Origin: Bacilli bacterium | GTDB lineage: Bacteria > Bacillota_I > Bacilli_A > RFN20 > CAG-826 | DNA: 64,000 nt | Assembly (NCBI GenBank): GCA_017940265.1 | Contig: JAGAYY010000025.1 | Coordinates: 256,711-320,710, forward strand | Reading direction: 5' to 3' | Shown here: in pieces, positions 32,165 through 63,197 of the stretch | How positions within the stretch are numbered: position 1 is the stretch's first letter | Layout of the letters: the number at the start of each line of letters is the position of its first letter | The notes under the pieces: generated by a model | Database searches by the model: none | Told to the model about the DNA's origin: nothing | What the model saw: the letters and a program-made list of their open reading frames with translations, nothing else | Translations under genes and position numbers: made by a program

Positions 32165-32176
32165 TGACAAACTAAA

Positions 32177-36532: not shown

Positions 36533-36540
36533 AATCTATT

Positions 36541-36715: not shown

Positions 36716-36904
36716 ATGAAAATAAAACGTAAGAATTTCGCTGTTAAAGTAATTAGCGATGATCTAATTAAGAAACAAGTAGCGGCAGAAGTCAAGAAAA
36801 GTACAGATTGGATATTAAAAAATAAACCATCCATAAAATTCCTTCGACCTGCCACTAAGAAGAGTAGTTGGTTTAGTAAGAAGGAAGGAGAAAAAGATGA
36901 ATAA
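36716..36904 (+). CDS. leader-bearing small basic protein
   Basis: MKIKRKNFA (longest ORF starts at 36710); overlaps the terL start by 8 nt. Confidence 0.55.
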   Translation: MKIKRKNFAVKVISDDLIKKQVAAEVKKSTDWILKNKPSIKFLRPATKKSSWFSKKEGEKDE

Positions 36905-41590: not shown

Positions 41591-41845
41591 AACAATTATA
41601 ATAAACTTAAAAATATGATTACAGGAGAAACTACCTTATGTGTTTTGCGTCACGGGAATACATACGCAACAATCCTCAAGACTACAGAAGATACTTATGA
41701 TGTCTATAGAGGAAATGACTTAATGTATGAAGAAGTAACATACACCGAAGCCTGCGAGTTCTACAAAGCTTTTATGGCTACTAAATCACTAAACCATTCA
41801 GAAGAGATTATATGTATAACAAAGAAACAACCCATATTATCCTAG
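41585..41845 (+). CDS. hypothetical protein
   Basis: 86-aa ORF; alternative start at 41615, because ATG 41585 sits in the S2 stem. Confidence 0.55.
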   Translation: MRNNYNKLKNMITGETTLCVLRHGNTYATILKTTEDTYDVYRGNDLMYEEVTYTEACEFYKAFMATKSLNHSEEIICITKKQPILS

Positions 41846-42498
41846 GAACAGCTCACCTAGGTTCTACCCCAGGAAAATGTAGTCCAGATTCTAAATTCAG
41901 AGAAGCAGTATGGAGTAGAGAAATTATTGCTGAACTTGCCCCTGCCCTTGAAAGTTATGGTTGGACGGTACATGTTGATTATCCCTCAATGCTTCCCGGT
42001 CCTGCTCTCAAAGACAAAGACCCAAAGAAAGAACAATCCAAAGAACTTCAGTATAGGGTTGGATTCGTTAACGGTCTTTGCAAACGACATGGCAAAGAGA
42101 ATTGTATCTACGTGTCAATTCATGTTAATGGAGCTGGAAATGGAGGGAAATGGTTAGGAGCTAGAGGATGGAGCGCTTATACTTCTCCGGGGCAAACAAA
42201 AAGTGATATCCTAGCCTCTGACTTATACTGGGCCGCTACCAAAAATATTGTCCCTGATTACTCTAAAACTGGTGAATGGGTCGGAAGTCAGAAACCTATC
42301 AGGACAGATCTCTCAGATGGTGACCCCGATCTAGAAGAGAGATTATATGTTCTTACTAAAACCCTCTGTCCTGCCGTCCTAACCGAAAATCTCTTCCAGG
42401 ATAATAAGGACGATGTCAGTTTCCTTACCTCAGATCTAGGCCGACAATTAATCCTGAGGACTCATGTAGAAGGAATATTACGATTCTTAGAACGATAA
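41812..42498 (+). CDS. N-acetylmuramoyl-L-alanine amidase (Amidase_3 type endolysin)
   Basis: IILGTAHLGSTPGKCSPD.., YVSIHVNGAGNGG, GWSAYTSPGQTKSD, AVLTENLFQDNKDD. Confidence 0.9.
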   Translation: MYNKETTHIILGTAHLGSTPGKCSPDSKFREAVWSREIIAELAPALESYGWTVHVDYPSMLPGPALKDKDPKKEQSKELQYRVGFVNGLCKRHGKENCIYVSIHVNGAGNGGKWLGARGWSAYTSPGQTKSDILASDLYWAATKNIVPDYSKTGEWVGSQKPIRTDLSDGDPDLEERLYVLTKTLCPAVLTENLFQDNKDDVSFLTSDLGRQLILRTHVEGILRFLER

Positions 42499-45005: not shown

Positions 45006-45524
45006 ATGAAGGTAATACGACAAAATAAGGTTATTATCGATGCTCTTAAGGGGATTGATACAACGAAAATTAACTTGGATGATCGAGAATTTCATTTTAT
45101 AGACGAAGTAACTCAGGGGCCAGGTTATACTAAGGTTTGTATTTCTGGTGGTCTTAATGGAAGAGGTATCTGGTCTAACTATTTCGAAGTCCTGGCTAAA
45201 GTTATGTTTCAGATAGAACTTAGGTTTCCTGACGCTTTTGTTGTATCACTGGAGAATGATACTGCGGATGATATTTTCTATCTCTACATAGGTATTCCGA
45301 ATGATAATGAGGAACGTATTTTCTCTAAGGCATCCGGACGAGAAACGGTACCTGACTCTATCGTTAAGAAAGTTAAAGCAGGTGAAGGAGTAATTCATCA
45401 GTATAAAGGAAAATGGAGAATTGTTAGTATGAAAACTAACCCTCCCACTTTTTGGAACGCTGAGTATGAGACTAGGGAAAAAGCTGAATCTGCGCTTAAA
45501 GCATATCAAGCAAATAAAAGATGA
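45006..45524 (+). CDS. hypothetical protein
   Basis: ATG 45006 (MKVIRQNKV..); the track start at 45000 is a TTG. Confidence 0.65.
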   Translation: MKVIRQNKVIIDALKGIDTTKINLDDREFHFIDEVTQGPGYTKVCISGGLNGRGIWSNYFEVLAKVMFQIELRFPDAFVVSLENDTADDIFYLYIGIPNDNEERIFSKASGRETVPDSIVKKVKAGEGVIHQYKGKWRIVSMKTNPPTFWNAEYETREKAESALKAYQANKR

Positions 45525-46882
45525 TAACATTTAAAGAAAAAACAACAGATCTCCTAGACGAAAAAGACTTCCTCCCTAAGGCTATAGATAGTTTTTTCAA
45601 GTTTAGGGGAAGGGAATTGTACTCAGAACCAATCTCCTCTACAAAGCCGTCGGGAACAAAATTGGCCGGACTCTCTAAGGGCAAATTTTCTACTCCGGAG
45701 GTTAAGGGGATAATTAAGGAAGTAACTATAATACATCCAGCTTCTCACCGTGAATATAAGGCTTCGGAGTTTGTGTATACAGGAAAACCAAAGGACTCTA
45801 CTCTTGATTTAGGTTTCAAGGTATCGGTGAAAGAAGGCTTAATAGTACCTGAAGAATTTGAATACTATAATTTCCTGATGTACACTTTAGGAAAATACAC
45901 AGGAGATTATGACTACAAATTTGTTATGGTGGGCTCTAATCCCCCTAAGCCAATTATCACTATTCCAAACTCAAAGACTGGATGGATAAATCTAGTAAGG
46001 GCATTGACTGAATTTTGTGTTTCCCTTAAGTTATTCTTCGGGATTAAGTATTATGTTTGGTTAGTCCCCGAGGAAGTTCCAGAAGCAAAGAATTTCTCAG
46101 GACTTGCATCTTTTATACCTACTCTTACTTCACTGGTCTATAAAACAATAGTACTCCCTATCCTTAAAAAACGTGTAGCTCTTAAGTGGGAAAAATCATT
46201 AACTACTAAATACTCTTCTTCTCTTCTCCCTAAGCTTCTCAAGAAAATAAAAGGAGATTGGGGAGATAAACTGATATTAGGGGATTGTACGCAGCAGTCA
46301 TATTATCTCAACCTAACTAAAGGAAAACAAGCAGCAGAGGTTAGGAAGGTATTTACGAACAAGAAATTCCTAGAAGATGAAGGGATAGATCCAGAGAGAA
46401 GAAGATGTCCAGTTGATTGGTGGGCATTTGCAGCTTCGAAAGAAAAAGATCTGATAATGATTTCTGACCTAGATCCTGTTCCTGCTATTTTCCATGAGGT
46501 TGGACATTTCTTAGCTAACAATGAAAATCTATTAGGTCCCATTCAGAGAGCTTCCCATCGTGGAGTATTCAGTGATGGATTCGTTTCACTAGCCTCATTT
46601 CTTTTAGGTACTGGAGGGGGTATAGCTGGAAGCCCGGTAGGAGAAATATCAGGGTGGGTAGTTTCTATACTTCTTAAGTTCCCTACCTTGTGCACAGAAT
46701 TTATGGCTTCGTGGTATGGACTCCAGCTTATGAAGTCGTTAGGTGCTACTGATAAGGACCTGACAGAAGCTAAGTATGCATTTAAGACAGCATTCTCTAC
46801 TTATGTACTATCTGCCTTAGGAAAAGCTGGCAATTCTGGATATGGTCGTCTATTAGGTGAAGGAATTAAACGATATAAATAA
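45521..46882 (+). CDS. leader-bearing HExxH zinc metalloprotease with C-terminal membrane segments
   Basis: MITFKEKT..; PAIFHEVGHFLA; hydrophobic LASFLLGTGGGIAGSPVGEISGWVVSILL. Confidence 0.7.
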   Translation: MITFKEKTTDLLDEKDFLPKAIDSFFKFRGRELYSEPISSTKPSGTKLAGLSKGKFSTPEVKGIIKEVTIIHPASHREYKASEFVYTGKPKDSTLDLGFKVSVKEGLIVPEEFEYYNFLMYTLGKYTGDYDYKFVMVGSNPPKPIITIPNSKTGWINLVRALTEFCVSLKLFFGIKYYVWLVPEEVPEAKNFSGLASFIPTLTSLVYKTIVLPILKKRVALKWEKSLTTKYSSSLLPKLLKKIKGDWGDKLILGDCTQQSYYLNLTKGKQAAEVRKVFTNKKFLEDEGIDPERRRCPVDWWAFAASKEKDLIMISDLDPVPAIFHEVGHFLANNENLLGPIQRASHRGVFSDGFVSLASFLLGTGGGIAGSPVGEISGWVVSILLKFPTLCTEFMASWYGLQLMKSLGATDKDLTEAKYAFKTAFSTYVLSALGKAGNSGYGRLLGEGIKRYK

Positions 46883-46883
46883 T

Positions 46884-47678
46884 ATGGTTACAATCAAACA
46901 AGGAAGCAAGGGACCAGAGGTAACTCGTCTTGCTAAACTCCTCGGTCTTTCCCCAAGGACCGTATGTGATAAGGAGATGTCTGATGCTATGTGTGCCTAT
47001 CAGAAAGCTTGGGGACTCACAGCGGATGGTGTTTTTGGGTATAAATCTTGGAAACATATCTTGATCGCTGAGAGATATTCAAAAAATAAGTCTGGGAAAA
47101 TAGTTGACTCAGATTATGAATTATTTGCCTGGCTCCTGGGATGTGAGGCTATAATGATTAAAGCTTTTGTATCTGTAGAGTCTGGAGGTTCTGGTTTTCT
47201 TCCTTCTGGTAGACCTAGGATTCTTTTTGAGTCTTATCAATTCTGGAAGAACCTTAAGGCTGAAGGAATCGACCCCAACAAATATCTCCCCGAGTATTCT
47301 GACGTTATAACCACTAAATGGATCAAGAATTACAAGGGAGGTGAAGGAGAATGGACTCGGATGGAAAAAGCTAGAAAGATATCTCAGGGGGCAGCTAATA
47401 AATCAGCTTCTTGGGGTATGCTTCAGATTATGGGATTCAATTATTCTTTATGTGCCGAACCCTCTATTACTAAATTTGTTGAGGATATGGGAAAAGACGA
47501 ATTCACACAACTTAGCCTGGGAATTGAATTTATGAGATCGGCAGGAATAGTTCCATACATGATCTCTAAAGATTTCACTAAGCTAGCTAAGAAGTATAAT
47601 GGTCCGGGTTATGCTGCCAACAAGTACGATTTGAAGCTTAAAAACGCATATTACAGCCTAAAATCGAAGAAAAACTAG
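46884..47678 (+). CDS. peptidoglycan-binding domain + N-acetylmuramidase (DUF3380-type)
   Basis: PG_binding_1-like KQGSKGPEVTRLAKLLGL..YQKAWGLTADGVFG. Muramidase blocks VSVESGGSGF, ILFESYQFW, SWGMLQIMGFNY, KYNGPGYAANKYD. Confidence 0.85.
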   Translation: MVTIKQGSKGPEVTRLAKLLGLSPRTVCDKEMSDAMCAYQKAWGLTADGVFGYKSWKHILIAERYSKNKSGKIVDSDYELFAWLLGCEAIMIKAFVSVESGGSGFLPSGRPRILFESYQFWKNLKAEGIDPNKYLPEYSDVITTKWIKNYKGGEGEWTRMEKARKISQGAANKSASWGMLQIMGFNYSLCAEPSITKFVEDMGKDEFTQLSLGIEFMRSAGIVPYMISKDFTKLAKKYNGPGYAANKYDLKLKNAYYSLKSKKN

Positions 47679-47826: not shown

Positions 47827-49488
47827 ATGAAGAAGAGTGAAAATATGATTCAAAAGATGTTCGGATCATTCGCAATCGGATCAAGTCGTGTACCAATCCG
47901 AAGTAATGTATATCGAACAGGTGGAGGGTATTCGGCAATTGGCGGAACTGGTGGAGCGTCGATTTTCGATAGCTTTGACAGAAAATCTCCACTTCTCGGA
48001 AATGCTAGTCCGAGTAATCGTATCTCTGGGTATATCGATCGAATTGGAGAGCTCAAGGGATACCAACTTTTAGATATCTCGAAGCTTGCAACTAATTTCT
48101 TCGCCGACTATGTAACGAATTTCTTAGTCGATGGAAATGGACAGCAACTCGTGACTATATTAAATGAAGAGGATGATTCAACCGACGAACAGGTGACTGA
48201 GCGTATTAACAACATCCTCTCGAAAGACCTGAAAATTCTAGACTGGATTCGAGATCACTTACAGGATTATATATTCTATGGTGAGTACTTCGGAATGTTA
48301 CAGAAATCTCAGGATGAAACTGGTCATACGAAGTTCAGAATTGAGGAACTGCATGACCCGATTTGTGTAATTACCAAGAAAAAGCGCAATTCTGATGGTG
48401 AGATGGAAGAAACTTATCTTGCCAGAGGTGAAGATGGTGGTATTTACGAGATTCCAAGAAATGAGATCGTCTATATTGCCTCTCAGAACTTGCGCTTAAT
48501 AAATGACCTCTCTGACGAATGGAAAGAGAATGAGAAGAAACAGAAAAAACTAATCCTTAAGGGTGAGAGCAATCGAGATAAGGTACTTAAGTCAGAATCT
48601 TATATGACCTCTGAACCTCTCCTGTATGCTCTAATCCTGAAGGTTAAGGAGTTAGTTATTAAAGAGTTATTAGTTAGCCTGATCTCTCTTCGTGACTTAT
48701 CTTCAGTACAAATTTTTCTCCTTCAGTTCGATAAATCCATTCCCCTAGAAAGTGCTAATGAATTATGTGCTAGAGCCACTAAGTTAGCTAATAATACAAA
48801 CGAACTTGGTAGCTTTCTGTCCAGTCAATTTGATGTGATTTCCTTTATTGAAAACACCTTGACCCAGAGTGCTAAATTCGTTCCTGACTATAACTCTACT
48901 CTGGGAGGTAAGAATTCAATGCTCCCCTTAGATAAGCTCACTGATAAACTCTTAGATATTATGCAGACCCTTGATCAATGTAAGGGTAATATCTTAGGTC
49001 CCCTTGGTCTTCCTACTACTATGATGGATTCAACCTCTGGTAATAAATGGCAAGTCCTTCAACAATCAGAACGTGCTAATTCAAGAGTTACCGGATTTAT
49101 GTCAGGGATTAAGGATTCTATGATTTCCTTAGTTTGCACGATCTATCGAACCCTGTATAATGATGAACTTGATCCTGGACTTATTAAACTTCATATCGCT
49201 GAGAAAACGAGCGTAGAGTATAATAATCAGATCAACCAATCAGAATCAGTAAGTGGTTTAGTTCAGGGTATAACTGGTATTGTTCAGAATGCAATTCAGA
49301 CTCTTGAAACTGCTGCCCCACTCATTGATGGAAAAGCGTTCTTGAGTTATATTCAGACACTTATCAAGAACATAGACTCTAATACCGGTGACTTAATAAC
49401 AGAGGAATCACTAGAATCATACCTTAAGTTATTACAGGCTAAGGTTGACTCACAGTACGAACAATTAGGATTAACACCAGATGAATAA
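47827..49488 (+). CDS. putative portal protein
   Basis: About 550 aa. First gene of a T4-like head module (portal, small proteins, protease, scaffold, MCP). Called from position and size only. Alternative start at 47845 gives MIQKMFG, which matches the leader. The track start at 47812 is a TTG. Confidence 0.55.
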   Translation: MKKSENMIQKMFGSFAIGSSRVPIRSNVYRTGGGYSAIGGTGGASIFDSFDRKSPLLGNASPSNRISGYIDRIGELKGYQLLDISKLATNFFADYVTNFLVDGNGQQLVTILNEEDDSTDEQVTERINNILSKDLKILDWIRDHLQDYIFYGEYFGMLQKSQDETGHTKFRIEELHDPICVITKKKRNSDGEMEETYLARGEDGGIYEIPRNEIVYIASQNLRLINDLSDEWKENEKKQKKLILKGESNRDKVLKSESYMTSEPLLYALILKVKELVIKELLVSLISLRDLSSVQIFLLQFDKSIPLESANELCARATKLANNTNELGSFLSSQFDVISFIENTLTQSAKFVPDYNSTLGGKNSMLPLDKLTDKLLDIMQTLDQCKGNILGPLGLPTTMMDSTSGNKWQVLQQSERANSRVTGFMSGIKDSMISLVCTIYRTLYNDELDPGLIKLHIAEKTSVEYNNQINQSESVSGLVQGITGIVQNAIQTLETAAPLIDGKAFLSYIQTLIKNIDSNTGDLITEESLESYLKLLQAKVDSQYEQLGLTPDE

Positions 49489-49729
49489 AGAAAAACATGG
49501 ACAAGCCGTAGGAGTAGCAACAACTTTAACAGGAGCGGGACTTATGGCTGCAGGAAAACTCGCTGGCGCAAAGAAATTCCAAGAATATGCTGGTGAGGGT
49601 ATTAAGAAACATGCTAAGACCTTAAAAGTAGCCGGTCCTATTCTCACAGCTGGGGGAATTGGATTGACTGGGGTTAGTACTTATAAACTCAAGAGAAAGA
49701 AGAAAGATGATAGTTCTGAGAAGAAGTAA
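49481..49729 (+). CDS. small Gly/Ala-rich (glycine-zipper-like) protein
   Basis: VGVATTLTGAGLMAAGKLAGA..LTAGGIGLTGV. Confidence 0.6.
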   Translation: MNKEKHGQAVGVATTLTGAGLMAAGKLAGAKKFQEYAGEGIKKHAKTLKVAGPILTAGGIGLTGVSTYKLKRKKKDDSSEKK

Positions 49730-50036
49730 ATCATTCTCCTCTCCTGAACAATCCCAAGAAGTTACATCTCGTGATCTTTTGGTCGAGCAAATGAAACAGC
49801 AACGTCAATTACTTCAGACTCAGAGGTTGCGCGAAAAATTACAGGCTCAAGAACGGCGCGACATGATGAAAAATCTTAGGGAGGCTCAGAAGGATAGTGA
49901 CGAAGACAAGAACGACCAGATGAAAAATCAGGTTAAGATAAACAAGATACAAGCAGAACAGAATGATGGCGCCAAAAATGTAAGCCTGTATAAAACTCGC
50001 GCAAAAACTGTTCCCCCTGTATCAATGAAAGTCTAA
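49707..50036 (+). CDS. leader-bearing basic coiled-coil protein
   Basis: MIVLRRSKSFS. Confidence 0.6.
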   Translation: MIVLRRSKSFSSPEQSQEVTSRDLLVEQMKQQRQLLQTQRLREKLQAQERRDMMKNLREAQKDSDEDKNDQMKNQVKINKIQAEQNDGAKNVSLYKTRAKTVPPVSMKV

Positions 50037-50043
50037 AGAAAAT

Positions 50044-50139
50044 ATGGAACTGAAAGAGAAAACATTTACCAAGGAAGTTGAGAATGGACCACAGGAAACC
50101 GATGAGTCCAAAATCTATAATCCACTCCGCCCATGGTAA
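50044..50139 (+). CDS. possible 31-aa leader-bearing peptide (below ORF-track cutoff)
   Basis: Own translation MELKEKTFTKEVENGPQETDESKIYNPLRPW*; its stop overlaps the next ATG. Confidence 0.3.
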   Translation: MELKEKTFTKEVENGPQETDESKIYNPLRPW

Positions 50140-50324
50140 TCAAGCGTAAAAAGAAGAAAGTATCGGGCGAAGAACTACGTGATGTTCTCTCCGATCATGT
50201 CCTGGAACCTACCACCGACGTACTTAATAAGGTCGAAGAATCTAAGGTAGGTCAAGTAGCACCCGTCAAGAAAAAGACGAGGATGGTACGAAACTTTATT
50301 ACTGGAGTCAAGGCATACTCCTGA
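50133..50324 (+). CDS. leader-bearing small protein
   Basis: MVIKRKKKKVS. Confidence 0.5.
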   Translation: MVIKRKKKKVSGEELRDVLSDHVLEPTTDVLNKVEESKVGQVAPVKKKTRMVRNFITGVKAYS

Positions 50325-50338
50325 TAAAAGAAACAATT

Positions 50339-50650
50339 ATGTATATACGTAGAAAAGCATTCTCAGTAGCAACGATTGATGGTGAGGAAAAGTTATTCTC
50401 TACTAAGGATCGTGCCAAGAAAGCAGCTGAAGGAACTGCCGTAGCTGGTGGTGTAGCTGCTGTTGGTCTTGCTGGTGCTCATAAACTGGGTGATAAGATT
50501 AAGAATAAGATTGCCAAAGAAACTGAAGAAGCTGGTTATAAATCAAGAAAGAATCAGAAACTTGAGAAGGTAGCCGAAAAACTTCAGAAACCAGGTGAAA
50601 AAGTATCTAAAGGTCTTGCCAAGGTTCTTAAGAGAGTTACTAAGCGATAA
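50339..50650 (+). CDS. leader-bearing Gly/Ala-rich protein
   Basis: MYIRRKAFS..EEKLFS..; GTAVAGGVAAVGLAGA. Confidence 0.65.
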   Translation: MYIRRKAFSVATIDGEEKLFSTKDRAKKAAEGTAVAGGVAAVGLAGAHKLGDKIKNKIAKETEEAGYKSRKNQKLEKVAEKLQKPGEKVSKGLAKVLKRVTKR

Positions 50651-51943: not shown

Positions 51944-53176
51944 ATGCGTTGTAAGGTACGTGTTTTAAAATTTGGTACCAAAGCAAGTGATGGTAGCTTA
52001 ATCGGAGAATCTGTAGTACGGAGTTATCTAGAAACCCCGGAATGCATCGAGGATCTAAAAGCTCACCGCATGATAGGATCATTAACTCACAGAGTTCGTA
52101 ATATATCAGCACTAGGGTATTCAAGTGAAACGGCGTCAAATCTTAAGAAAACTATTGCCAAAGATGATGGACTTCTTTTGATTGATAGTAATTGTCCACC
52201 CACTCACTATGTTGATAAATTATGGATTGAAAATGGAGCACTTTGGGCCGAGTTACAAATTTTTGATGAAGAAGGATTTGATGATCAAGCTGTTCAGGCC
52301 ATTCGTAGACTTAAATCTCTCTTGAAATGTACTCAGATAGGCATTTCGAGCGTAATACTAGGCTTCTGGTCGGGCATGAAAGATGGTGTAGATGTTTTAG
52401 AGAAACTTGTACGCTGTAAGGGTATAGACTTTACTTTAAGCCCCAGTTTTCCTGGCAGTTATGTTACCGATGTCATGAATGATGATGGAACTGTTATTGA
52501 AAAAACTTACAGTATTCCACAAGAAGAAATGTTCGAAGGATATAGAGTAAAAACTTTCTCTAGTCTTGAGGGATTTGATATTAATGTTCCAAAAACTTCA
52601 AAGATTGAGAATAAGTTTACTATTCTAAAAGCTAAGGAATTTAATTCAATAACAGATCTTTCAACTGTTAATGATGAATGTGAGCCTAAACAGAAAGAAT
52701 TCACAGTAGCTTCAGTAAATGATCAGATTAGGATGACGAAACTTAGTCCTCGTATTAGGTTTAGACGTATAATCCTAGAATATCGTCAAGTCCTTAAGCA
52801 ACATGGTGGTATAGAAAAGATTGATGAAGAAACTTTGAGAATTATGAAGTCTTTGTTTGCTAATGAAATTCTTAAATTACTGCAGGAAGCTACTCCCCAG
52901 GTAATGAAAGGCAAACAACTTAATGCATTACTTGGCGCTGCATCTCTTAGTGCCGAAGTCAGAAAGGCTTGTAACTCTCTAAACCTTCCACTCAGATTAG
53001 CTTTGATGGAAAATAAGAAGCAAGGTTTTGTAAGTAAGGCTAGATATCAGAAGATTCAAGATGCTTATAATGACTTTGTTCATAGCATTTTGGCCTATGT
53101 ATTCGAAACTCCAACCACCAAGAAGCTACAGGAAGAGGAACTTAATCCAGAAGAAGGCAATGAAGGAAAGAATTAA
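51944..53176 (+). CDS. prohead (maturation) serine protease, T4 gp21-like, with C-terminal coiled-coil extension
   Basis: By eye, blocks MIGSLTH (His), LWIENGALWAELQIFDE, QIGISSVILG (Ser) and IDFTLSPSFPGSYV parallel the gp21 blocks ..GELNHP.., ..MWWKGNDVYGRARVIEG.., ..PGVSSRGLG.., ..VDAVWGPSAPDAWV.. as I recall them. Sits just upstream of the scaffold and MCP. Confidence 0.7.
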   Translation: MRCKVRVLKFGTKASDGSLIGESVVRSYLETPECIEDLKAHRMIGSLTHRVRNISALGYSSETASNLKKTIAKDDGLLLIDSNCPPTHYVDKLWIENGALWAELQIFDEEGFDDQAVQAIRRLKSLLKCTQIGISSVILGFWSGMKDGVDVLEKLVRCKGIDFTLSPSFPGSYVTDVMNDDGTVIEKTYSIPQEEMFEGYRVKTFSSLEGFDINVPKTSKIENKFTILKAKEFNSITDLSTVNDECEPKQKEFTVASVNDQIRMTKLSPRIRFRRIILEYRQVLKQHGGIEKIDEETLRIMKSLFANEILKLLQEATPQVMKGKQLNALLGAASLSAEVRKACNSLNLPLRLALMENKKQGFVSKARYQKIQDAYNDFVHSILAYVFETPTTKKLQEEELNPEEGNEGKN

Positions 53177-53963
53177 ATTATTTTCAGACCCCACCCCAAA
53201 AGAGAGGATTAAGCTTTTCTCTAAGGATGGTAGTGGAACAAAAGTAGTAGTTTGTGCAGATTGTGGGTTTAAACAAGAGACCTCCGCCCATACTACTAAT
53301 TTGCTATGTCCTAAATGTGGTAGTACCCGGTTTAATGTTCTTAGAGCTGTTTATAGCCCTGAAGTATCACCGGAGAAAATCGAAGAACAGGAATGGCAAA
53401 AAGAATTTAATGAAACAAGTGATGAGTTAGAACTTAGATTAAAGGAATTTTCGGGGACAAGTCTTAGTGCTGCCAACTTCGAAAAGGAATTTAGCGTCAT
53501 AGGAGTTACTTCCGAAGATCTTCAAGCGAGAGGTTATGCTAATACCGCTGAAGATGGAAGTATCGAGATTCCTAGCGATGCCTTCTTAATGTCGAGACTC
53601 TTCAGTAATATCAAGATCAGCATAACTAAAACGCTTGAACTAGATCCGGAAGTAATGAATGACGCTTCTACTGGCATATCTAAACTGGAAGAGGTCAGTG
53701 ATCTAAGTCCAAAGAGTATTGCCATAATCAAGAAAGTTCATGGATTTAAAGTCCCTGAGATAGATAAAGAGTCTTGGTTGGCTGATTCTGGTATACAAGG
53801 TGATTTGAAACTCGAGTTTGGTGGTCAGAATATGGATACACCAGAATTTCAATCATTACTAGCAGAAAGATATCCTGATGCTCCGGAGGATCTCTTTGAA
53901 GTTTTAAAAACAAAAGGTATAATCCGAGACACCGGAGATAACAGATTAGAAATCATAAAATAA
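53160..53963 (+). CDS. zinc-ribbon protein with duplicated leader
   Basis: MKERIKLFSDPTPKERIKLFSK..; CADCG..CPKCG; start at ATG 53160 (longest ORF starts at 53061). Confidence 0.7.
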   Translation: MKERIKLFSDPTPKERIKLFSKDGSGTKVVVCADCGFKQETSAHTTNLLCPKCGSTRFNVLRAVYSPEVSPEKIEEQEWQKEFNETSDELELRLKEFSGTSLSAANFEKEFSVIGVTSEDLQARGYANTAEDGSIEIPSDAFLMSRLFSNIKISITKTLELDPEVMNDASTGISKLEEVSDLSPKSIAIIKKVHGFKVPEIDKESWLADSGIQGDLKLEFGGQNMDTPEFQSLLAERYPDAPEDLFEVLKTKGIIRDTGDNRLEIIK

Positions 53964-53966: not shown

Positions 53967-56075
53967 ATGGCTAATACACGTTTAATGGATCGACTCTTTA
54001 GTGCTACAGAAAATAAAGAGGAAGATGTTTTGAATCAGACCGCTCAGGAAATCGAGAAGGCTAAGGAAAATGGCTCTCACGATACGGATGAGTTGGCCTA
54101 TGAAAAGGTAGACGATAATAAAGTTAAAGTTACCGATAAGGAGAATGGTGAGGTTACTATGATCGAGAATTCAGAAGATGGTTACGATATCTATAACCCT
54201 GAGGACGTCTTAGAGGATGAGCAGCCCAAACTTGAGGGATTCTTGCATCCGGAAGTGGATGATCAGGTTGTTCCTGGTGAGCAGACTAATCCTACCGAGA
54301 AAGTCGAAGATCATGAAAATGAACCTATCTCTCCAAATGTAGAAGGTGGTGGTCTCAATCCAGAGGCAGGCCAGGAGAAGAGCGTTGAGGAAACAGCAGC
54401 TGAAGGTCCACAGCCTGAGGAAGGTAAGTGCCCTGAGTGCGGTAAGGAATCTTGTGAATGCAAAAAGGAAGAGCCCAAGAAGGAAGAGGAAGAGAAGAAG
54501 TTCTCTGTATATACTTCTAATTCTGCTGTTCATCGTATCTTCAGTGATCAGGAGTTCTGTGAGCGTTTGTTCTCAGAGGTTCTTGAATCAACTGGTGATG
54601 TTGAAGATGTTACTAAGGTTGGTAACCTCAAGATTGAGAAGACTGCAGACAATGAGCTGATTGTAACTGACTGTGCAACTGGTGATGCTGCTAAGGTATC
54701 TCTCGATGCAGAAGAGCTTTCTGTGACTGAACTTGAGAAGAAGACATTCTCTGAGGAGGGTTCAGAAGGTATTAATCAGCCAGATCAATTTGAACCTGTT
54801 CATGTAGTAGGTGTTGATACTGGTAATCATCAGTTAGTTGACTCTAGTGCATATGGCGCAGAGGAGGCTCAGGAATTAGCTAACCGCCTTACAGAGGCTG
54901 GCGTAGACGGCGTTCAGGTAATTGAAGATGAGGAGGCCGCTCGTGATTACGCTATCGACCTGTTGAATAATCTCGGTGTTAATAATCCCGAGAATGTTGA
55001 AGAGCCCGAAGAGGTTACTTTCAGTGACACAGAAGGCAAGGAATATAGCGTATTTGTTACTCGCTATTTCTCTAATAACACTATCTTCATGGATCGCTTA
55101 TTCAGTGAGTCTGCTAATGGTGTTGAAACCAGTCAGGCTAAGATTGAAGATGCTCTGAAGAGTGGTGACGAGATTGAAACCGATAGTGAAATTGTTACTC
55201 CAATTAGTGCTACAGAAGCTGTAGTCGAAGACAAGGATAATGACCAATTCACGAAGGTTACTCTCGTAGATGACGAACTTAAGCTTGATCCTATTTCTAA
55301 GGATGAAGCAGACGAACTTTTAGATGACGTCGCTGTTTCAGAAAAAGAGAAGGATTTCTCTGATATCTGGACAAATGAGGCTCGCACTAAGTTCTTCTCT
55401 GAAAATGAACCTATGACTGCTTACATGGAACGTCTATTCTCTGATGAAGAGAAGGAAGAACTAATTGAGGAAGCAATCGAGAAAGGTGAACAGAATGAGA
55501 CCGATACTATTGTTATTACTCCGGTAGATGCAGAAACTGCTATTATCCAGGATAAAGGAAATGGTGAGTTTACTAAAGCTGTTCTGTCAGAGGAAGATAT
55601 TGATCTCGCTCCTATCAGTGAGGAAGAAGCTGATAAATTAACTGAGGAGAAGAAGGTCGAGGAAGAGCCTAAGAAAGAAGAGAAAGAGGAAGAAAAGGGA
55701 TTCTCCGTACTCACTAAGTGGTTCACTCAGGTTGTTCCTGCACAGGCACAGCCCGTAGTAGCTGCTCCTCAAGCTGCTCCAGTTCCCGTTGCTCCTGCAG
55801 TTGATGAGAATGGTCAGCCTGTAGTTCCTGCTAATGAAGTACCTAGCGTAGAAGCTATCGAAGACAAGGCTATCGCTGCTGTTCAGCAAATTCAGGCTGC
55901 TGCTGCTGAAGCTGAGGCTCAGATTCTTAATGCTAAGGCTGCTCCGGTGGAGAATGCAGAAGTAGATCTTCAGGAAGCTCAGTTCTCTGAGAAGAAAGAC
56001 GAAAAGACTTTCTCTGCTAATGAAAACGATTCTCTCGTTTCTTGGCTGAACGGCATTTCTAAATTTCGTCGTTAA
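53967..56075 (+). CDS. acidic scaffolding-like protein with internal repeats
   Basis: 702 aa and highly acidic, immediately upstream of the MCP. Four RLFS-initiated modules; Ala/Pro/Gln-rich C-terminal region. Confidence 0.65.
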   Translation: MANTRLMDRLFSATENKEEDVLNQTAQEIEKAKENGSHDTDELAYEKVDDNKVKVTDKENGEVTMIENSEDGYDIYNPEDVLEDEQPKLEGFLHPEVDDQVVPGEQTNPTEKVEDHENEPISPNVEGGGLNPEAGQEKSVEETAAEGPQPEEGKCPECGKESCECKKEEPKKEEEEKKFSVYTSNSAVHRIFSDQEFCERLFSEVLESTGDVEDVTKVGNLKIEKTADNELIVTDCATGDAAKVSLDAEELSVTELEKKTFSEEGSEGINQPDQFEPVHVVGVDTGNHQLVDSSAYGAEEAQELANRLTEAGVDGVQVIEDEEAARDYAIDLLNNLGVNNPENVEEPEEVTFSDTEGKEYSVFVTRYFSNNTIFMDRLFSESANGVETSQAKIEDALKSGDEIETDSEIVTPISATEAVVEDKDNDQFTKVTLVDDELKLDPISKDEADELLDDVAVSEKEKDFSDIWTNEARTKFFSENEPMTAYMERLFSDEEKEELIEEAIEKGEQNETDTIVITPVDAETAIIQDKGNGEFTKAVLSEEDIDLAPISEEEADKLTEEKKVEEEPKKEEKEEEKGFSVLTKWFTQVVPAQAQPVVAAPQAAPVPVAPAVDENGQPVVPANEVPSVEAIEDKAIAAVQQIQAAAAEAEAQILNAKAAPVENAEVDLQEAQFSEKKDEKTFSANENDSLVSWLNGISKFRR

Positions 56076-56163: not shown

Positions 56164-57624
56164 ATGAATAGCAATACATATTATTTGTCTATGATGCAGC
56201 AGCCCGCTATGATGGATGCTCTGCTTGCAAGCTCGGTTAGTGCTGAAGACGCTAATCTCCGTTCACGCGAGTATGCTAAGATGTTCTCTCGCAATGAAGA
56301 CCTGAAGAATGTATTTGGTCTTAATAACAGTGCTAATCTGATGCAGAAGACTTTCTCTGGTTATGCAGAGACTCCGCTGCTGAGCACGCAGTATTTCAAT
56401 GCTTCGGTTGCTTCTTATGTAAGCTCTTTCGCTGGCTATATGTCTATCGAGCGCGACTTTGATCAGCCTAATGGTCTGTTCTATTGGTTCGACGTTCTCG
56501 GTGTTACCGATATGCGTTCAATTATTCCTAACCTGGGTCCGGATCAGTATCAGGACATTCAGAGCATGGGTGGATTTGAACTCGAGATTACTCCTACTGC
56601 TAATGCTGACTATAGCGCACTGGTAGGTCGTAAGATTATCCCCGGTACTGTGCGTATTAAGATTAAGAATGCTACTGAGGCTTTCGAGCTGATTGATAAT
56701 GGTCAGGGTGCTTTCATGGCTGTTGCTAATAAGATCACTACTGGTACTGTTAACTATCTGAACGGTCGTATCGAGTTCACACTGGCTACTGCTCTGAGCG
56801 GTGATGCTAATACTGAGTCTATCGTTATCGTAGGTAAGGAAGACGTTACTGGTACTCCTTGCAATACCGTAGGTGCAAGCAATGCTCATACTAATGACAA
56901 GCGTTTCATTGCTAAGATGCAGCAAATTGGTCTGTCTACAGTTCCCGATATGCTGGTTGCTGAGTATAACATTGCAGCTCTCGGTGCAATGAAGAAGGCT
57001 ACTGGTGCTGATATGGCTACTTTCCTGTTCACCAAGCTGCGCGAGCTCTATACCAAGATGATTAACTACAAGCTGGTTAGCACTCTGGAAGAGGGTTATG
57101 TAGGTAACACTATGAATGACCTGGATCTGAGTGTTGCATCTGTTGGTGTATCTAGCAAGTTCCACGATTATCGTTCTCGCGTTGATGTATTCGATGCATA
57201 TCTGATCAACGTTGAGAGTGCACTGGCTACAAAGGCTGTTAAGGGTGTTAACACAACTGCTTATGTTGTTGGTAACCAGGCTGCTAACCAGTTCCAGAAG
57301 GGTGGTATGATTGGTAAGTTCGAGAAGAATACCAAGATGACCTACATCAACGACCTGCTTGGTTGGTACGACGGTGTTCCCGTGCTGCGTTCTACCGATA
57401 TCGCTGAGGCTCAAGGTGAGGGTACATTCTATGCTATCCACAAGACCGCTGATGGTCAGATGGCTCCTCTGGCTCGTGGTATCTACATGCCTTTGACAGA
57501 TACTCCTACCATTGGTAACTATAACAACCCAACTCAGATGGCTTCTGGTATCTACTACCAGGAGGGTACTAAGTACATGGCTCCTGAGCTGGTTCAGAAG
57601 GTTACCTTCAAGTACGGCATCTAA
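56164..57624 (+). CDS. major capsid protein (gp23-like position)
   Basis: 486 aa. Follows the protease and scaffold. Codon usage differs sharply from its neighbours (CTG/CGT/GGT-rich), as expected for a highly expressed gene. RSIIPNLG resembles the gp23 RRAIPNLIA block. Flanked by strong hairpins. Confidence 0.75.
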   Translation: MNSNTYYLSMMQQPAMMDALLASSVSAEDANLRSREYAKMFSRNEDLKNVFGLNNSANLMQKTFSGYAETPLLSTQYFNASVASYVSSFAGYMSIERDFDQPNGLFYWFDVLGVTDMRSIIPNLGPDQYQDIQSMGGFELEITPTANADYSALVGRKIIPGTVRIKIKNATEAFELIDNGQGAFMAVANKITTGTVNYLNGRIEFTLATALSGDANTESIVIVGKEDVTGTPCNTVGASNAHTNDKRFIAKMQQIGLSTVPDMLVAEYNIAALGAMKKATGADMATFLFTKLRELYTKMINYKLVSTLEEGYVGNTMNDLDLSVASVGVSSKFHDYRSRVDVFDAYLINVESALATKAVKGVNTTAYVVGNQAANQFQKGGMIGKFEKNTKMTYINDLLGWYDGVPVLRSTDIAEAQGEGTFYAIHKTADGQMAPLARGIYMPLTDTPTIGNYNNPTQMASGIYYQEGTKYMAPELVQKVTFKYGI

Positions 57625-59507: not shown

Positions 59508-60089
59508 ATGATTATATTCAAACAAAAAACTTTCTCAGAGTATGATGCAATGAGAAGTTTAGTCGTCACTTTACAAAAATATGGTGACCGAACAAAATGG
59601 AAAACTATCGACTCTAGTGCAGTAGTTCCCGTTCTTCGTGGAAATAATGTAGTAATTGAAAGATTCGTAATATCAACTTCATTCTTACATAGAGATCGTT
59701 ATAGGATGTATTTAAAAATAGGTGCTAAAGCGAAACTCCCGGATGAAGTAAGATTACCAGAAAAAGTATATGATAAAAGACTTGGAAATGCATCTTTAAA
59801 CATAAATGTTGCTAATTTTGCTCCCGGTAGTCAACCTCAGCAAAAGAACAACTCAGTTATATTTAAGCAAAAAGAATTTAAAGGCGGTGGTGCTCCTCCT
59901 ACCGTAAGTGCTAACCTTTCTCCAAATATTGATCTTACATATCAAGTCAGAGAACTATTAGGAGAAGCAGTTAAATACGATAAGAAAGCTCGCTCACTTG
60001 TCTTAGAATTCAAATCAATTCAAGATGCAATTACAGCCTTAAATATACTACCTTTTGGTATAGACTATAATATATTCTTACTCAAATGA
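59508..60089 (+). CDS. leader-bearing protein
   Basis: MIIFKQKTFS; internal repeat of the leader VIFKQKEFKG. Confidence 0.7.
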   Translation: MIIFKQKTFSEYDAMRSLVVTLQKYGDRTKWKTIDSSAVVPVLRGNNVVIERFVISTSFLHRDRYRMYLKIGAKAKLPDEVRLPEKVYDKRLGNASLNINVANFAPGSQPQQKNNSVIFKQKEFKGGGAPPTVSANLSPNIDLTYQVRELLGEAVKYDKKARSLVLEFKSIQDAITALNILPFGIDYNIFLLK

Positions 60090-60307
60090 TAATCTTGCGT
60101 AAACAATTCTCAGGGACTAAGATCTTGAATACAAATGGTGCTCCCGGATTTATTAGGGGAAGAAAATATGATACTGACCTTGATAGACTTGGACGTATGG
60201 AGACATCACAACGAGAACTTCAGAGGACTGGGCAAATAGGGCAAGAGATTAGACAATTGGGAAAAGAATTAAATCAAGGAAGACTAGGAAAATGGCAAAA
60301 TTCGTAG
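60086..60307 (+). CDS. leader-bearing small protein
   Basis: MIILRKQFS. Confidence 0.6.
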   Translation: MIILRKQFSGTKILNTNGAPGFIRGRKYDTDLDRLGRMETSQRELQRTGQIGQEIRQLGKELNQGRLGKWQNS

Positions 60308-60564
60308 TTAAAAGAAAAACATTTGGAATTGCTGAAGCTGCACAGAATACGATCGGTACAGCCGCTGAAACTGCTGGTAATGTTGCTGATACTAAAATCG
60401 GTGGTATGGTAGGTGGACTTGCTACTGGAGGTGCTATTCAAAGTGCCTTGGGTCTTGGATTAGGTCCTTTAGGTTGGTTAGCAGGTGCAGCTCTCGGAAC
60501 AGCAGCTACTCGTGCCGCAGGTAAGGGTCTCAAATCCCTTGGTGAAAGTATTAAGACTGATTAA
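60292..60564 (+). CDS. leader-bearing glycine-zipper protein
   Basis: MAKFVVKRKTFG; GGMVGGLATGGAIQSALGLGLGPLGWLAGAALG. Confidence 0.7.
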   Translation: MAKFVVKRKTFGIAEAAQNTIGTAAETAGNVADTKIGGMVGGLATGGAIQSALGLGLGPLGWLAGAALGTAATRAAGKGLKSLGESIKTD

Positions 60565-60570
60565 AATACA

Positions 60571-61878
60571 ATGATAACATTCAAGCAGAAAAAATTTGCT
60601 ATTCCTGCAATTGCTATGGGAGCACTAAACGCTGCTGGAACTGTAGCTACCGTAGCAGGAATAAAACAGTCTGCTGATCAAGCCAAGGAAGCTGAGGAAC
60701 AAGCCGAAAAACAACGAGAAGCTATAGAAAAACAAACCAAAGCTCTCAATAAAATAGCTAAAGAAGCCAAATCTAATCCTGAGGTTGCCGATAAAGTTCA
60801 GAAAGAATTTGCTGCTACACCACTAATAAAAAATGTAGCCGGATTTGCAAAGGATGTATGGGGAACTCAGAAAGGCAACGTAAGCAAAGCTGCAAAAGCG
60901 GGCTTAGGTTTTGGTGCATTAGGTTGGGCAGGTAATAGATTAACAACATCCATAAAAGACCATGATGAGGGAAATGATGAAAAAAATCGTAGTTTCCTTA
61001 AGAAAGCCGCACTAGGTGCTGCTACCGTTGGGGGTGGTATCTTGGCTGCTAAAAAGGGAGTACTTGGAAAATCCGCTCAAGAATTCATGACTAATGGTGC
61101 AGGATCTAAAGCCTTAACCACAACCAAAGAAGCTATTAATCCAATTGTTCGAGATCCTAAAACCGGTTCTATCTCCAAAGGACAAACAGCTATGAAGGTT
61201 GGTATGAATGGTGTTTTTGTTGGGATGCCTGTTATGGGTTATCTTGGACAGAAAAAACAACAGGATGATCAAATTCAGAAAAGCTATTCGGATAGAAAAG
61301 ATTCTGGACTCCTTAAAGGATTAGCTGGTGCTGCAACATTAGCAGGAACAGTAGCCTTGGGTAGGAAAGGAATGCTAGGGGCTAAGGTTCAAAGAGGCAT
61401 TGGTAATGTCACTGCACACACTGGTGGGATTCTTAAGTCAGTTGGTGCTACTAAAACAGGTGATAAACTGGCGAAAAGTGGTGCTAATACTTTTGCTCAA
61501 GGATTCCGCGATAAGAATGGTAATGCTGTTATAGGTGCTGTCAAAAATAGTGTAGCAAATAAAAAATACAATACGGCTGCTGCTCCTAATAAAATATCAG
61601 ATGGAATATCTAAGGCGGGTAGCTTCTTAGGCTTCTATGGTAAAGGAGGTACTAAGGCCGTTCAGAATACAGCAAATACCTTGGCTAAATCAGATAATCA
61701 AATCTCTAAAAACGTAGGTGAGTTCTTACAAAAACACAAGACGACTGCTAATGTGGCTGGAAGTGTTGGAGCTCTTGCAGTAGGTGGAACAGTAATGGGA
61801 GCTGGTGAAAAACCATTCAAAGTACTAGATTCACGTGCCTACGATTATGAGAAACAACAAAATCAGGAGGTTCGATAA
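60571..61878 (+). CDS. leader-bearing large Gly/Ala/Lys-rich protein
   Basis: MITFKQKKFA; 435 aa with repeated KKGVLGKSAQ / RKGMLGAKVQ units. Confidence 0.75.
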   Translation: MITFKQKKFAIPAIAMGALNAAGTVATVAGIKQSADQAKEAEEQAEKQREAIEKQTKALNKIAKEAKSNPEVADKVQKEFAATPLIKNVAGFAKDVWGTQKGNVSKAAKAGLGFGALGWAGNRLTTSIKDHDEGNDEKNRSFLKKAALGAATVGGGILAAKKGVLGKSAQEFMTNGAGSKALTTTKEAINPIVRDPKTGSISKGQTAMKVGMNGVFVGMPVMGYLGQKKQQDDQIQKSYSDRKDSGLLKGLAGAATLAGTVALGRKGMLGAKVQRGIGNVTAHTGGILKSVGATKTGDKLAKSGANTFAQGFRDKNGNAVIGAVKNSVANKKYNTAAAPNKISDGISKAGSFLGFYGKGGTKAVQNTANTLAKSDNQISKNVGEFLQKHKTTANVAGSVGALAVGGTVMGAGEKPFKVLDSRAYDYEKQQNQEVR

Positions 61879-62312
61879 TGGCAACATACAAGTTAAAAAG
61901 AAAAGTTTTTACCAAGTATGATGAGACTGATAACTTGAAACGTATGAAAGACTCGGATATCCTTGCTGAACAAAAAAAGCAAGCTCCTGGTTACGGTTCA
62001 GTTGCAAGTCAAGCAGCTGGTGGCGCTATTGCTGGTGGTATAGCCGCAGGTGCAGCCGGAATTGCTAAAGGACTTGGAAATAAAGGTGCTAGAGTTGCTA
62101 CTGCTGGAGCTAATCTCTCCAAGTATGGAAAACTCGGAGCCATCGGTGGAGCTGCAATCCTCGGAGGTATGGCACTTAAAAATAGAAATAAACAGGCTGA
62201 GGAAAACAACTTCTATAATCGTCGTCTAGAATATGCTCAAAAACAAGCAATTAGACGCGAGAAAAAGGACTGGAAAGCCAATATGACACAGCGAGATGGG
62301 TACTCTTATTAA
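61878..62312 (+). CDS. leader-bearing glycine-zipper protein
   Basis: MATYKLKRKVFT; AAGGAIAGGIAAGAAGIA; LGAIGGAAILGGMA. Confidence 0.7.
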   Translation: MATYKLKRKVFTKYDETDNLKRMKDSDILAEQKKQAPGYGSVASQAAGGAIAGGIAAGAAGIAKGLGNKGARVATAGANLSKYGKLGAIGGAAILGGMALKNRNKQAEENNFYNRRLEYAQKQAIRREKKDWKANMTQRDGYSY

Positions 62313-62583
62313 ATTTCGACAAAAAAAGTTTGGAAAAGTAGAAAAGTTTTTGAAGACGCCTGCAGGAATTATTAGTACTACAGGTTTAGCAGTTTCTTCA
62401 GCCAATCTAACTACCAACGTAAGTAGACATCGAAACGATAAGAAATACCAAGAAAATCAGATTGAAGCTATGAATAAACTTACTTCTTCAATTAAAGGGC
62501 TGGATAAAACAGTTAAAGGAGTTGAGAAGGGAAAAGAAAATCTACACAGCTTCATAACATTTAAACCAAAACATAAGAAATGA
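62296..62583 (+). CDS. leader-bearing small protein
   Basis: MGTLIKFRQKKFG. Confidence 0.6.
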   Translation: MGTLIKFRQKKFGKVEKFLKTPAGIISTTGLAVSSANLTTNVSRHRNDKKYQENQIEAMNKLTSSIKGLDKTVKGVEKGKENLHSFITFKPKHKK

Positions 62584-63197
62584 TTCAGTTTAGACAAAAA
62601 CAATTTGGTCTAGGTGCTGATACTTTAAAATGGGCAGGCCTCGGTGGAATAGCTGGTCAAGTTGCATCTAAAATTCCTTACTTCAGAAAAAAAATAAGGG
62701 GAAAAGAAGATTGGTCAACTACTTTGGCTATCGTTGGAGGTGGTACTGTAATTGGTGCTGGTTTAGGTCTACTGGTTGGATTAACTAAGGACGCATCTCA
62801 AAAAATCAATCGAGCTACTACAGTCGATAGAAGACTTATGCAAAGTGTAATAGAAAATCTTAAGAAATCAGGACTTAAAGAAGATCAAGACTTTACCCGA
62901 GATCCAAAAATTGCTAACGACTTGAAGGTTAAAGTTTGCATAGTCATTTCTAAAGATTCAGGTAACTTACACCTCTTAGTTAATACAGTAGCAGACGCAA
63001 AATTAAAGACTGTTACTAACGGAATGGCTAAAAACATTCCAAACTCAGCTACAGTACATACAAAACTGTCAGATAAATATAACGATATATCGATATCAGC
63101 TATATCAGATTCTTCAGCTGACACAGGATTAATCACCGGAATTGCAGAATACTTCATACATAATAAGTATCCGGTCTATCTTGTTGAAGTTGGATAA
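62580..63197 (+). CDS. leader-bearing protein with glycine-zipper segment
   Basis: MIQFRQKQFG; LAIVGGGTVIGAGLGLLVGL. Confidence 0.7.
   Translation: MIQFRQKQFGLGADTLKWAGLGGIAGQVASKIPYFRKKIRGKEDWSTTLAIVGGGTVIGAGLGLLVGLTKDASQKINRATTVDRRLMQSVIENLKKSGLKEDQDFTRDPKIANDLKVKVCIVISKDSGNLHLLVNTVADAKLKTVTNGMAKNIPNSATVHTKLSDKYNDISISAISDSSADTGLITGIAEYFIHNKYPVYLVEVG

Follow-up and report, generated by a model that had tools for sequence, protein, structure and literature searches.

The 64,000-nucleotide stretch of contig JAGAYY010000025.1 analysed here (the window) carries on its + strand a run of genes in which a portal-position gene is followed by genes for small basic proteins, the protease, an acidic scaffold-like protein and the capsid protein, an order that recurs in the related loci L001 and L002 (coordinates are collected in Table 1). 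The subject of this analysis is the protease gene, whose product has the fold of a prohead protease and lies outside the S77 sequence family. We consider it likely that this open reading frame (ORF) encodes the capsid-maturation serine protease of a huge phage, and that the enzyme cuts at a motif, [KR]-x-[FY] before a small residue, which recurs throughout the surrounding late genes.

The protease gene and its fold

Twenty-two contigs in public assemblies carry the identical gene call, four of them in the 0.2–1 Mb class. In metagenomes the protease has 179 unannotated homologs, whose contigs reach 394 kb, and an exhaustive HMMER search of the family yielded 244 cluster representatives at 50% identity. 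Searches of GenBank phages by tblastn with the window protease, P0274 and P0318 returned no match (∼50,700 records in the case of the window protease). The family is seen in uncultivated phages alone, many on contigs above 200 kb and some on contigs of 340–400 kb. One metagenome-derived virus in UniProt, Siphoviridae sp. ctDOT22 (BFVD entries A0A8S5SVR6 and A0A8S5SWE7), matches both the capsid protein, for which it is the best match (25% identity, E 5e-18), and the protease model, through an ‘uncharacterized protein’ (20% identity, E 3.5e-7), and is probably a deposited relative with an unannotated protease.

An AlphaFold2 (AF2) model built on 35 homologs folds residues 1–185 into an alpha/beta domain, with block-mean predicted local distance difference test (pLDDT) values mostly between 75 and 96. 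When this model was compared with the PDB by Foldseek, three chains of T4 gp21 (5JBL) were the only matches below E 0.001 (probability 1.0, E 2.4e-4; identity 11–12% in the structural alignment), with herpesvirus assemblins next in the list (probability 0.8–0.94, E 0.15–0.5). Of the 66 matches in BFVD at E ≤ 0.001, the majority of those that are named are T4-type or HK97-type prohead proteases, among them the ‘prohead core scaffolding protein and protease’ of Tenacibaculum phage PTm1. We also made an alignment of the gp21 family from the T4 gene and its relatives and compared it by hhalign with two alignments of the window family. The close-family query matched at E 5.9e-6 (probability 85%, residues 88–178 against T4 98–184), and a broader query of the stand-alone protease domain, spanning 24–60% identity, at E 1.3e-5 (probability 80%, residues 35–176 against T4 71–182). 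An earlier note on this DNA, made from the letters alone, had proposed a gp21-like protease in the N-terminal ∼180 residues, with its catalytic His in MIGSLTH and its Ser in GISSVILG; the modelled domain, 5JBL as the best match and hhalign E values near 1e-5 bear this proposal out.

The profile–profile alignment also identifies the residues that would form the active site. It pairs MIGSLTHRVR with ALGELNHPPR, setting His49 opposite T4 His85 and Arg52 opposite Arg88; IGISSVILG with PGVSSRGLG, setting Ser135 opposite Ser140; and GIDFTLSPS with GVDAVWGPS, setting Asp162 opposite Asp168 and Ser168 opposite Ser174. Across the broad family His49, Arg52, Asp75 and Ser135 never vary, and Asp162, which is invariant in the close-family alignment, is kept in at least 90% of members. 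His85 and Ser140 are the residues that were mutated to inactivate T4 gp21 (PMC12991175), and a His/Ser/Asp triad is reported for the proteases of T4 and SPN3US (PMC5694885), in which, to judge from spacing and invariance, T4 Asp168 would be the Asp. The corresponding triad predicted for the window protein is His49-Ser135-Asp162.

The spacing from His to Ser is 86 residues in the window protein against 55 in T4 gp21, giving 31 extra residues that hhalign sets directly after the His (residues ∼56–87), in agreement with the earlier note’s estimate of an insertion of about 30 residues. AF2 models this segment as short helices (pLDDT 75–85), and in distant family members it is shorter. Behind the protease domain the note had envisaged a coiled-coil tail. 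A C-terminal extension is indeed present, but AF2 models it as a linker of ∼70 residues, disordered over residues 190–253 (pLDDT <50), and, in residues 255–400, a bundle of ∼145 residues that is helical throughout (pLDDT ∼90), in which a coiled coil is not evident.

A basic-x-aromatic motif in the late genes

The motif stands out statistically in the part of the window that contains the protease. In + strand ORFs beyond 29.4 kb (the late module) we counted 30 copies of [KR]-x-F-S where 3.8 were expected (z 13), and beyond 47 kb 25 copies where 1.5 were expected (z 20), whereas the − strand early genes contain two copies against 2.7 expected and are not enriched. Three-residue patterns of the forms a.bc and abc were also scanned without preselection: K.FS came top in the late module (z 11.2) and R.FS next (z 7.5), and the same scan of the early genes gave nothing comparable. 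Motifs of known proteases behave differently in the late module: [LI]-x-E is unenriched (117 observed, 123.5 expected), as the earlier note had maintained, and neither [SAG]-x-E nor [VLI]-x-A-S shows a comparable enrichment. The 76 non-redundant related loci drawn from IMG/VR and ENA all show enrichment of the motif (z 9–30), and in them [LI]xE and [SAG]xE never rise above z 2.0. As a reciprocal control, the T4 scaffold gp22 contains 16 [LI]xE where 5.8 are expected and lacks KxF-small sites altogether, while the 702-aa protein encoded between the protease and capsid genes of the window contains 15 KxF/Y-small sites against 0.8 expected (a number that none of 2,000 shuffles reached) and seven [LI]xE against 12 expected. 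The form x-F-S/G in which the motif had been described earlier captures a real, enriched signal but is too loose; the fuller form is [KR]-x-[FY]-[S/G/A/T].

The sites lie at conserved positions in the head proteins. Neither of the two sites in the capsid protein varies among 27 non-redundant orthologs. The second adjoins an almost invariant GYAETPLLSTQYF, in contrast to the 60 residues before it, which are variable. A cut after Phe64 would yield a mature N terminus at Ser65, beginning a peptide SGYAETPLLSTQYFNASVASYVSSFAGYMSIER. We identify this protein as the major capsid protein from a tblastn match to the putative major capsid protein of Escherichia phage vB_EcoM_IME392 and from BFVD, where the best matches of its model are named major capsid proteins. 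The portal-position protein, so called because size and position alone mark it as portal (Pfam and PHROGs gave no match), opens with a leader ending QK[MLIV]F[GS] in 21 of the 22 non-redundant orthologs listed (45–70% identity), the exception being a fragment without its N terminus. The next gene after that of the protease encodes a zinc-ribbon protein whose tandem RRKLFS leader is kept in 29 non-redundant orthologs; an alternative start for this gene at 53061 (300 aa) was rejected, as orthologs and public gene calls begin at the leader (53160). The 702-aa protein, with its many sites, is predicted to be a scaffold or core protein; it lies between the protease and the capsid gene, like T4 gp22. 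For the capsid, portal-position, p193 and p267 proteins alike, orthologs keep the positions of the motif and vary in its flanks.

Altogether, some 16 late ORFs begin with leaders of similar form, M-(I/V)-(I/V)-x-(K/R)-x-K-x-F-(S/G/A/T), and ∼12 of them are small. Those 3′ of the capsid gene form a run, within which leader conservation was seen in orthologs of ORFs 59508 and 60571, the two examined. The leader is longer than a minimal cleavage site and may therefore double as a capsid-targeting tag, like the capsid-targeting sequence of T4. Several small proteins, mostly leader-bearing (49481-49729, 50339-50650, 60292-60564, 60571-61878 and 62580-63197, + strand), are basic and hold Gly/Ala-rich hydrophobic stretches such as GVATTLTGAGLMAAGKLAGA and IPAIAMGALNAAGTVATVAG; with this composition they might act on membranes, as internal or ejected proteins. 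We also considered a 63-aa ORF (50133-50324) ending in KAYS as a possible product-like inhibitor, a candidate that was dropped, its ending not being conserved in the two relatives found.

The protease carries the motif too, exclusively behind its catalytic domain. Four sites in the linker align in 35 of 35 homologs while the stretches that separate them differ in length and in sequence, and distant family members have the same motif in their protease linkers. The C-terminal bundle is a separable module. In locus L086 the protease is a stand-alone gene of 166 aa (47-547), overlapped by a second gene (540-1121) that encodes KKFS...RVFS...KTFS and then the bundle domain, and in P0322, P0327, P0335 and P0363 the bundle is joined behind an unrelated N-terminal domain. 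In all five cases KxFS directly precedes the bundle, and P0363 has many additional KxFS sites beyond it. This layout is what one would expect of a core or scaffold module freed by the protease, and it recalls the C-terminal self-cleavage of phiKZ gp175 and SPN3US gp245 (PMC5694885). It also recalls the protease–scaffold fusion of herpesviruses. The bundle is probably an anchor that holds the enzyme in the core, or else a scaffold; its Foldseek matches in the PDB are generic helical bundles.

The position of the cut can be proposed from the composition of the motif. In the leaders the residue after F/Y is Ser in 45%, Ala in 12%, Gly in 11% and Thr in 6%; F/Y itself is constant, including in one ortholog family where V, W or F follows it. 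Herpesvirus assemblin cuts V/L-x-A↓S, a P3-x-P1 pattern with the cut (↓) after Ala. The same pattern holds for L/I-x-E↓ of T4 gp21 (PMC12991175) and A-x-E↓ of SPN3US and phiKZ (PMC5694885), and the P1′ residue is small in T4 gp23 (LTE↓A) and gp24 (LRE↓S). A constant aromatic residue, a variable small residue after it and the P3-x-P1 pattern elsewhere would place the cut in K-x-F↓S after the aromatic, and, provided that the motif is the cleavage site, we hold it fairly probable that it falls there. P3 would then be basic, P1 aromatic and P1′ small. The documented motifs of the T4 and phiKZ types (T4, phiKZ, 201phi2-1 and SPN3US) all cut after Glu, and we found no published prohead protease that cuts after Phe, an absence of evidence only, since our coverage of the literature is incomplete. 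As to what might alter the specificity, the second residue after the catalytic Ser is an invariant Arg142 in T4 and always Val, Ile or Leu (Val137) in the window family; this change is a weak hint, and the sole one in the sequence, of a re-tuned S1 pocket. Candidates for the lining of S3 are the conserved acidic residues Asp16, Asp74/75 and Asp113. A by-eye reading of S-x-R after the catalytic Ser of phiKZ is unsupported by alignment and was given little weight.

Table 1. Features of the protease gene and of the predicted substrates in the window
Feature	Position (nt)	Strand	Remarks
Prohead protease and C-terminal module, gene	51944-53176	+	ATG start, 410 aa
Protease domain, residues 1-185	51944-52498	+	assemblin/gp21 fold; AF2, Foldseek, BFVD, hhalign
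MIGSLTH, residues 43-49	52070-52090	+	
His49 codon, predicted catalytic His	52088-52090	+	in SLTHR; aligned to T4 His85, invariant
Extra segment after catalytic His, residues 53-87	52100-52204	+	absent from T4 gp21; hhalign gap
GISSVILG, residues 133-140	52340-52363	+	
Ser135 codon, predicted nucleophile	52346-52348	+	in GISSV; aligned to T4 Ser140, invariant
Asp162 codon, predicted third catalytic residue	52427-52429	+	in GIDFTLSPS; aligned to T4 Asp168 (GVDAVWGPS)
Disordered linker, residues 186-254	52499-52705	+	four predicted self-cleavage sites; AF2
Linker site KTYS, residues 187-190	52502-52513	+	
Linker site KTFS, residues 203-206	52550-52561	+	
Linker site KEFN, residues 231-234	52634-52645	+	
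Linker site KEFT, residues 251-254	52694-52705	+	
C-terminal helical-bundle module, residues 255-400	52706-53143	+	candidate core-docking or scaffold-like; AF2
Portal-position protein, 553 aa	47827-49488	+	12-residue leader ending KMFG (47854-47865); size and position
Small basic proteins between portal and protease	49707-50650	+	two leader-bearing: 49707-50036 (KSFS), 50339-50650 (KAFS, KLFS)
Zinc-ribbon protein, 267 aa, predicted substrate	53160-53963	+	tandem leader MKERIKLFS-DPTPKERIKLFS and further sites
Acidic protein, 702 aa, predicted scaffold/core	53967-56075	+	pI 4.1, 15 motif sites; between protease and capsid
Major capsid protein, 486 aa	56164-57624	+	tblastn, BFVD
Predicted capsid propeptide, residues 1-64	56164-56355	+	
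Capsid site KMFS, residues 39-42	56278-56289	+	
Capsid site KTFS, residues 62-65	56347-56358	+	QKTFS, residues 61-65
Seven ORFs 3′ of the capsid gene	59508-63197	+	leaders M-I-x-F-[KR]-Q-K-x-F-small; starts 59508, 60086, 60292, 60571, 61878, 62296, 62580
Four further leader-bearing ORFs	30040-36904	+	30040-30504 (MILIRTFS), 35269-35583 (MIIKRFS), 35573-35989 (MIIKRQKTFG), 36710-36904 (MNMKIKRKNFA)
All leader ORFs, starts		+	30040, 35269, 35573, 36710, 47827, 49707, 50339, 53160, 53967, 59508, 60086, 60292, 60571, 61878, 62296, 62580

Several other features of the window deserve mention. A 453-aa protein with an HEVGH sequence (45521-46882, + strand) matches Pfam Zn_peptidase_2 weakly (E 3e-4, below cut-off) and continues into hydrophobic segments; its HExxH is kept in relatives at 25–35% identity, and the protein itself has KxFS sites. 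The late module includes two peptidoglycan-hydrolase-like genes (46857-47678 and 41812-42498, + strand), the first of which matches PHROG 1224 ‘endolysin’, of the head and packaging class (E 6e-62), lies directly 5′ of the portal-position gene and may encode a virion-borne lysin. Also among the late genes is a 623-aa ORF (39094-40965, + strand) with a D5-like N-terminal region and a match to HNH or intron-encoded homing endonucleases (PHROG 559, E 2e-23). At ∼29300-29600 the genes switch from the − strand (2.1–29.3 kb) to the + strand (29.5 kb onward); the GC skew flips sign there, and the cumulative skew has its minimum near 30 kb. Transcription diverges at this boundary, which may also be a landmark of replication. 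On the early (−) strand lie genes for an SPFH/Band 7 and flotillin-domain protein (2540-4102; E 1e-19) and for a protein combining an HD domain with an AAA_33 kinase-like domain (18453-19601; E 8e-22). Finally, a 568-aa protein (32177-33883, + strand) with DUF4114/DUF4842 matches has a lipoprotein-type signal, MKKIILLILTTLLLIGC, which may hint at the type of the host cell envelope.

Proposed maturation scheme and its alternatives

By analogy with T4, the enzyme would be built into the prohead core and would cut [KR]-x-[FY] before a small residue. The capsid protein would lose residues 1–64 and the portal-position protein 12 residues; the 702-aa scaffold-like protein would be cut at ∼15 sites into peptides; and the 267-aa zinc-ribbon protein and the ∼12 small leader-bearing proteins would be further substrates. 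The four cuts in its own linker would release the catalytic domain from the C-terminal helical bundle, with predicted fragments of ∼21–22 kDa (residues 1–189 or 1–205) and, for the C-terminal part, ∼18 kDa. Taking fold, motif and leader together, we lean towards a joint reading in which the window protein is the founding member of a new assemblin-fold family whose specificity has been switched at both P3 and P1, and in which the leader serves as targeting and cleavage tag at once.

A number of observations weigh against this scheme. Cleavage at the motif is read from sequence statistics, and the triad from alignment and not from the geometry of the model. The TM-score to 5JBL is only 0.55 on the target, and the hhalign probabilities of 80–85% fall short of 95%. 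Neither phmmer nor a family-profile hmmsearch found a match among PDB chains, and scans of the window protease against Pfam and PHROGs gave no significant match. The profile search that had been suggested as a check came out divided, in that none of 35 family members reached S77 (PF03420) or S78 (PF04586) by HMMER even at E ≤ 10, while hhalign and Foldseek do link the family to gp21; with the gp21 fold and the catalytic residues in place, the lack of an S77 or S78 match by HMMER marks a new sequence family of a known fold. The capsid model is of low confidence (mean pLDDT 46, from a shallow alignment) and leaves the position of the motif sites relative to an HK97-type fold unfixed. A minimal cleavage site would be shorter and less patterned than the leader M-I-I-x-R-x-K-x-F-S, which may therefore be a docking signal, and the HEVGH metallopeptidase-like protein is encoded ∼5 kb upstream in the same module, a second candidate peptidase. 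The last two points bear on the alternatives that follow.

The alternative that survives best, although we regard it as unlikely, is that the protease is real but that [KR]-x-[FY]-S serves for docking or capsid targeting, with the scaffold, the shell or the C-terminal bundle as its binding partner, and that the true cleavage specificity is a different or a loose one. In its favour, beyond the patterning of the leader, is the resemblance of the leader to the capsid-targeting sequence of T4 (PMC9958956). The T4 sequence itself ends in a cleavage motif, however, so that targeting and cleavage are compatible roles. Moreover, the motif is not confined to leaders but recurs 15 times inside the acidic scaffold-like protein and four times in the protease’s own linker, the capsid site falls exactly at the boundary between variable and highly conserved sequence, and a small residue after F/Y is a typical P1′ preference of a protease. 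The three-residue scan showed no other motif to be enriched.

Still less probable, in our view, is that the motif is cut by some other enzyme, either the HEVGH protein or a protease of the host. The HExxH is kept in those relatives that have the protein within the flank that was fetched, but the protein carries motif sites, which suggests that it is a substrate. As for a host enzyme, the cysteine protease Prp of the host processes the capsid and scaffold leaders of staphylococcal phage 80alpha at F↓A, and the short leaders of the window, ending in F and a small residue, resemble the leaders of L27 and 80alpha. The L27-type motif, however, lacks a basic P3, and most sites in the window are internal, unlike the N-terminal processing of the Prp/L27 type. 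A host of the Bacteroides type has been suggested for the related Jug phages (PMC12363816). Hosts of this type are, to our knowledge, without the L27 extension and Prp. Against either enzyme, the phage has its own assemblin-fold enzyme, encoded between portal and scaffold with His, Ser and Asp intact and invariant, whereas 80alpha has no comparable phage-encoded protease gene, and the motif is conserved in the linker of this serine protease family-wide, distant members included, as expected of self-processing.

That the assemblin-fold protein is a catalytically inactive pseudo-protease or structural core and that maturation proceeds independently of it is very improbable: inactive paralogs do exist (SPN3US gp117 is a diverged second copy with no alignable catalytic His; PMC5694885) and the window sequence is very divergent, but His49, Arg52 and Ser135 remain strictly invariant and Asp162 nearly so across 24–60% identity, the head module showed no further gene with a protease fold, and the substrates carry a strongly constrained motif.

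If the protease does cut at the motif, then the motif marks its substrates, and the processed head proteins can be listed from sequence. The shared leader would mark packaged internal or ejected proteins, ∼16 in the window, and the virion interior of the abundant gut Jug-like phages would become predictable from sequence alone. Exact mature N termini, among them GSFAIGSSR for the portal-position protein and SEYDAMR for the product of ORF 59508, would likewise be predicted and could be searched for in existing metaproteomes. The leader and its enzyme would provide an orthogonal tag-and-protease pair for loading cargo into capsids. More generally, both substrate pockets would prove to be retunable within one fold while the logic of assembly stays unchanged, with a capsid propeptide of ∼65 residues, a many-site scaffold, leader-tagged internal proteins and a self-releasing protease; the general picture of head maturation would be unaltered.

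Relation to known systems

We take the phage to be related to the Jug phages, which have genomes of 360–402 kb, occur in human and animal guts and have Bacteroides/Phocaeicola as predicted hosts, as described in a 2025 preprint that was published in 2026 (PMC12363816, PMC12880540). The window capsid protein is 79–86% identical to those on IMG/VR contigs of 340–400 kb. The window protease is ∼44% identical to those of contigs of 360–400 kb, and its gene is uninterrupted, unlike that of four relatives of 340–400 kb (L045, L057, L061 and L063), where insertions of ∼180 nt, some with frame changes, fall after residues ∼75–79, after residue 139 (just beyond the catalytic Ser) and after ∼341–346. 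Such interruptions fit the ‘fragmented’ genes and the introns reported for Jug phages. The Jug study lists a prohead protease among virion genes that are ‘fragmented and/or highly divergent’, its identity with the window gene being unconfirmed, and its main text is silent on propeptides (PMC12363816).

With phiKZ gp175 and SPN3US gp245 the window protein shares a huge-phage setting, the His/Ser/Asp residues and a single motif at which many head and ejection proteins are cut or, in the window, would be cut. The phiKZ and SPN3US enzymes can act at several sites per propeptide and remove their own C-terminal part (PMC5694885, PMC10052503), but their motif, [S/A/G]-x-E with the cut after Glu, is the one found unenriched in the window and in related loci. 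No similarity between the protease family and gp175 was detected by hhalign, a comparison to be read against the calibration that the T4 family likewise detects nothing in gp175, its accepted homolog.

The herpesvirus assemblins (S21; human cytomegalovirus UL80a, herpes simplex virus UL26) form the second-best structural group. Assemblin is fused to a scaffold-type C-terminal part from which it releases itself at an internal site, and it has Ser at P1′. The differences are in the triad, Ser-His-His in place of the Asp predicted as third member here, in P1, which is Ala and not Phe/Tyr, and in sequence, in which there is no similarity.

T4 gp21 (S77, PF03420, 5JBL) remains the best structural match and the one whose His, Ser and Asp align by profile–profile comparison. 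The protease gene lies upstream of the scaffold and capsid genes, as in the T4 order 21-22-23, and the substrate logic is shared. T4 gp21 takes 65 residues off gp23, against the 64 predicted here, and in both systems there is a many-site scaffold and there are short leaders on internal proteins (PMC9958956). The likeness does not extend to the sequences of the partner proteins, for hhalign found no similarity between the capsid protein and T4 gp23 or between the C-terminal module and gp22. The architecture also differs, gp21 being a single domain of 212 aa without the 31 extra residues after the His and without the linker and helical module of the window protein. The first 186 residues of the latter contain no motif site, so there is no counterpart of the nine-residue blocking peptide of gp21. 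Finally, the [LI]-x-E of T4 and the [KR]-x-[FY] predicted here differ at both recognized positions, with P3 changed from hydrophobic to basic and P1 from acidic to aromatic.

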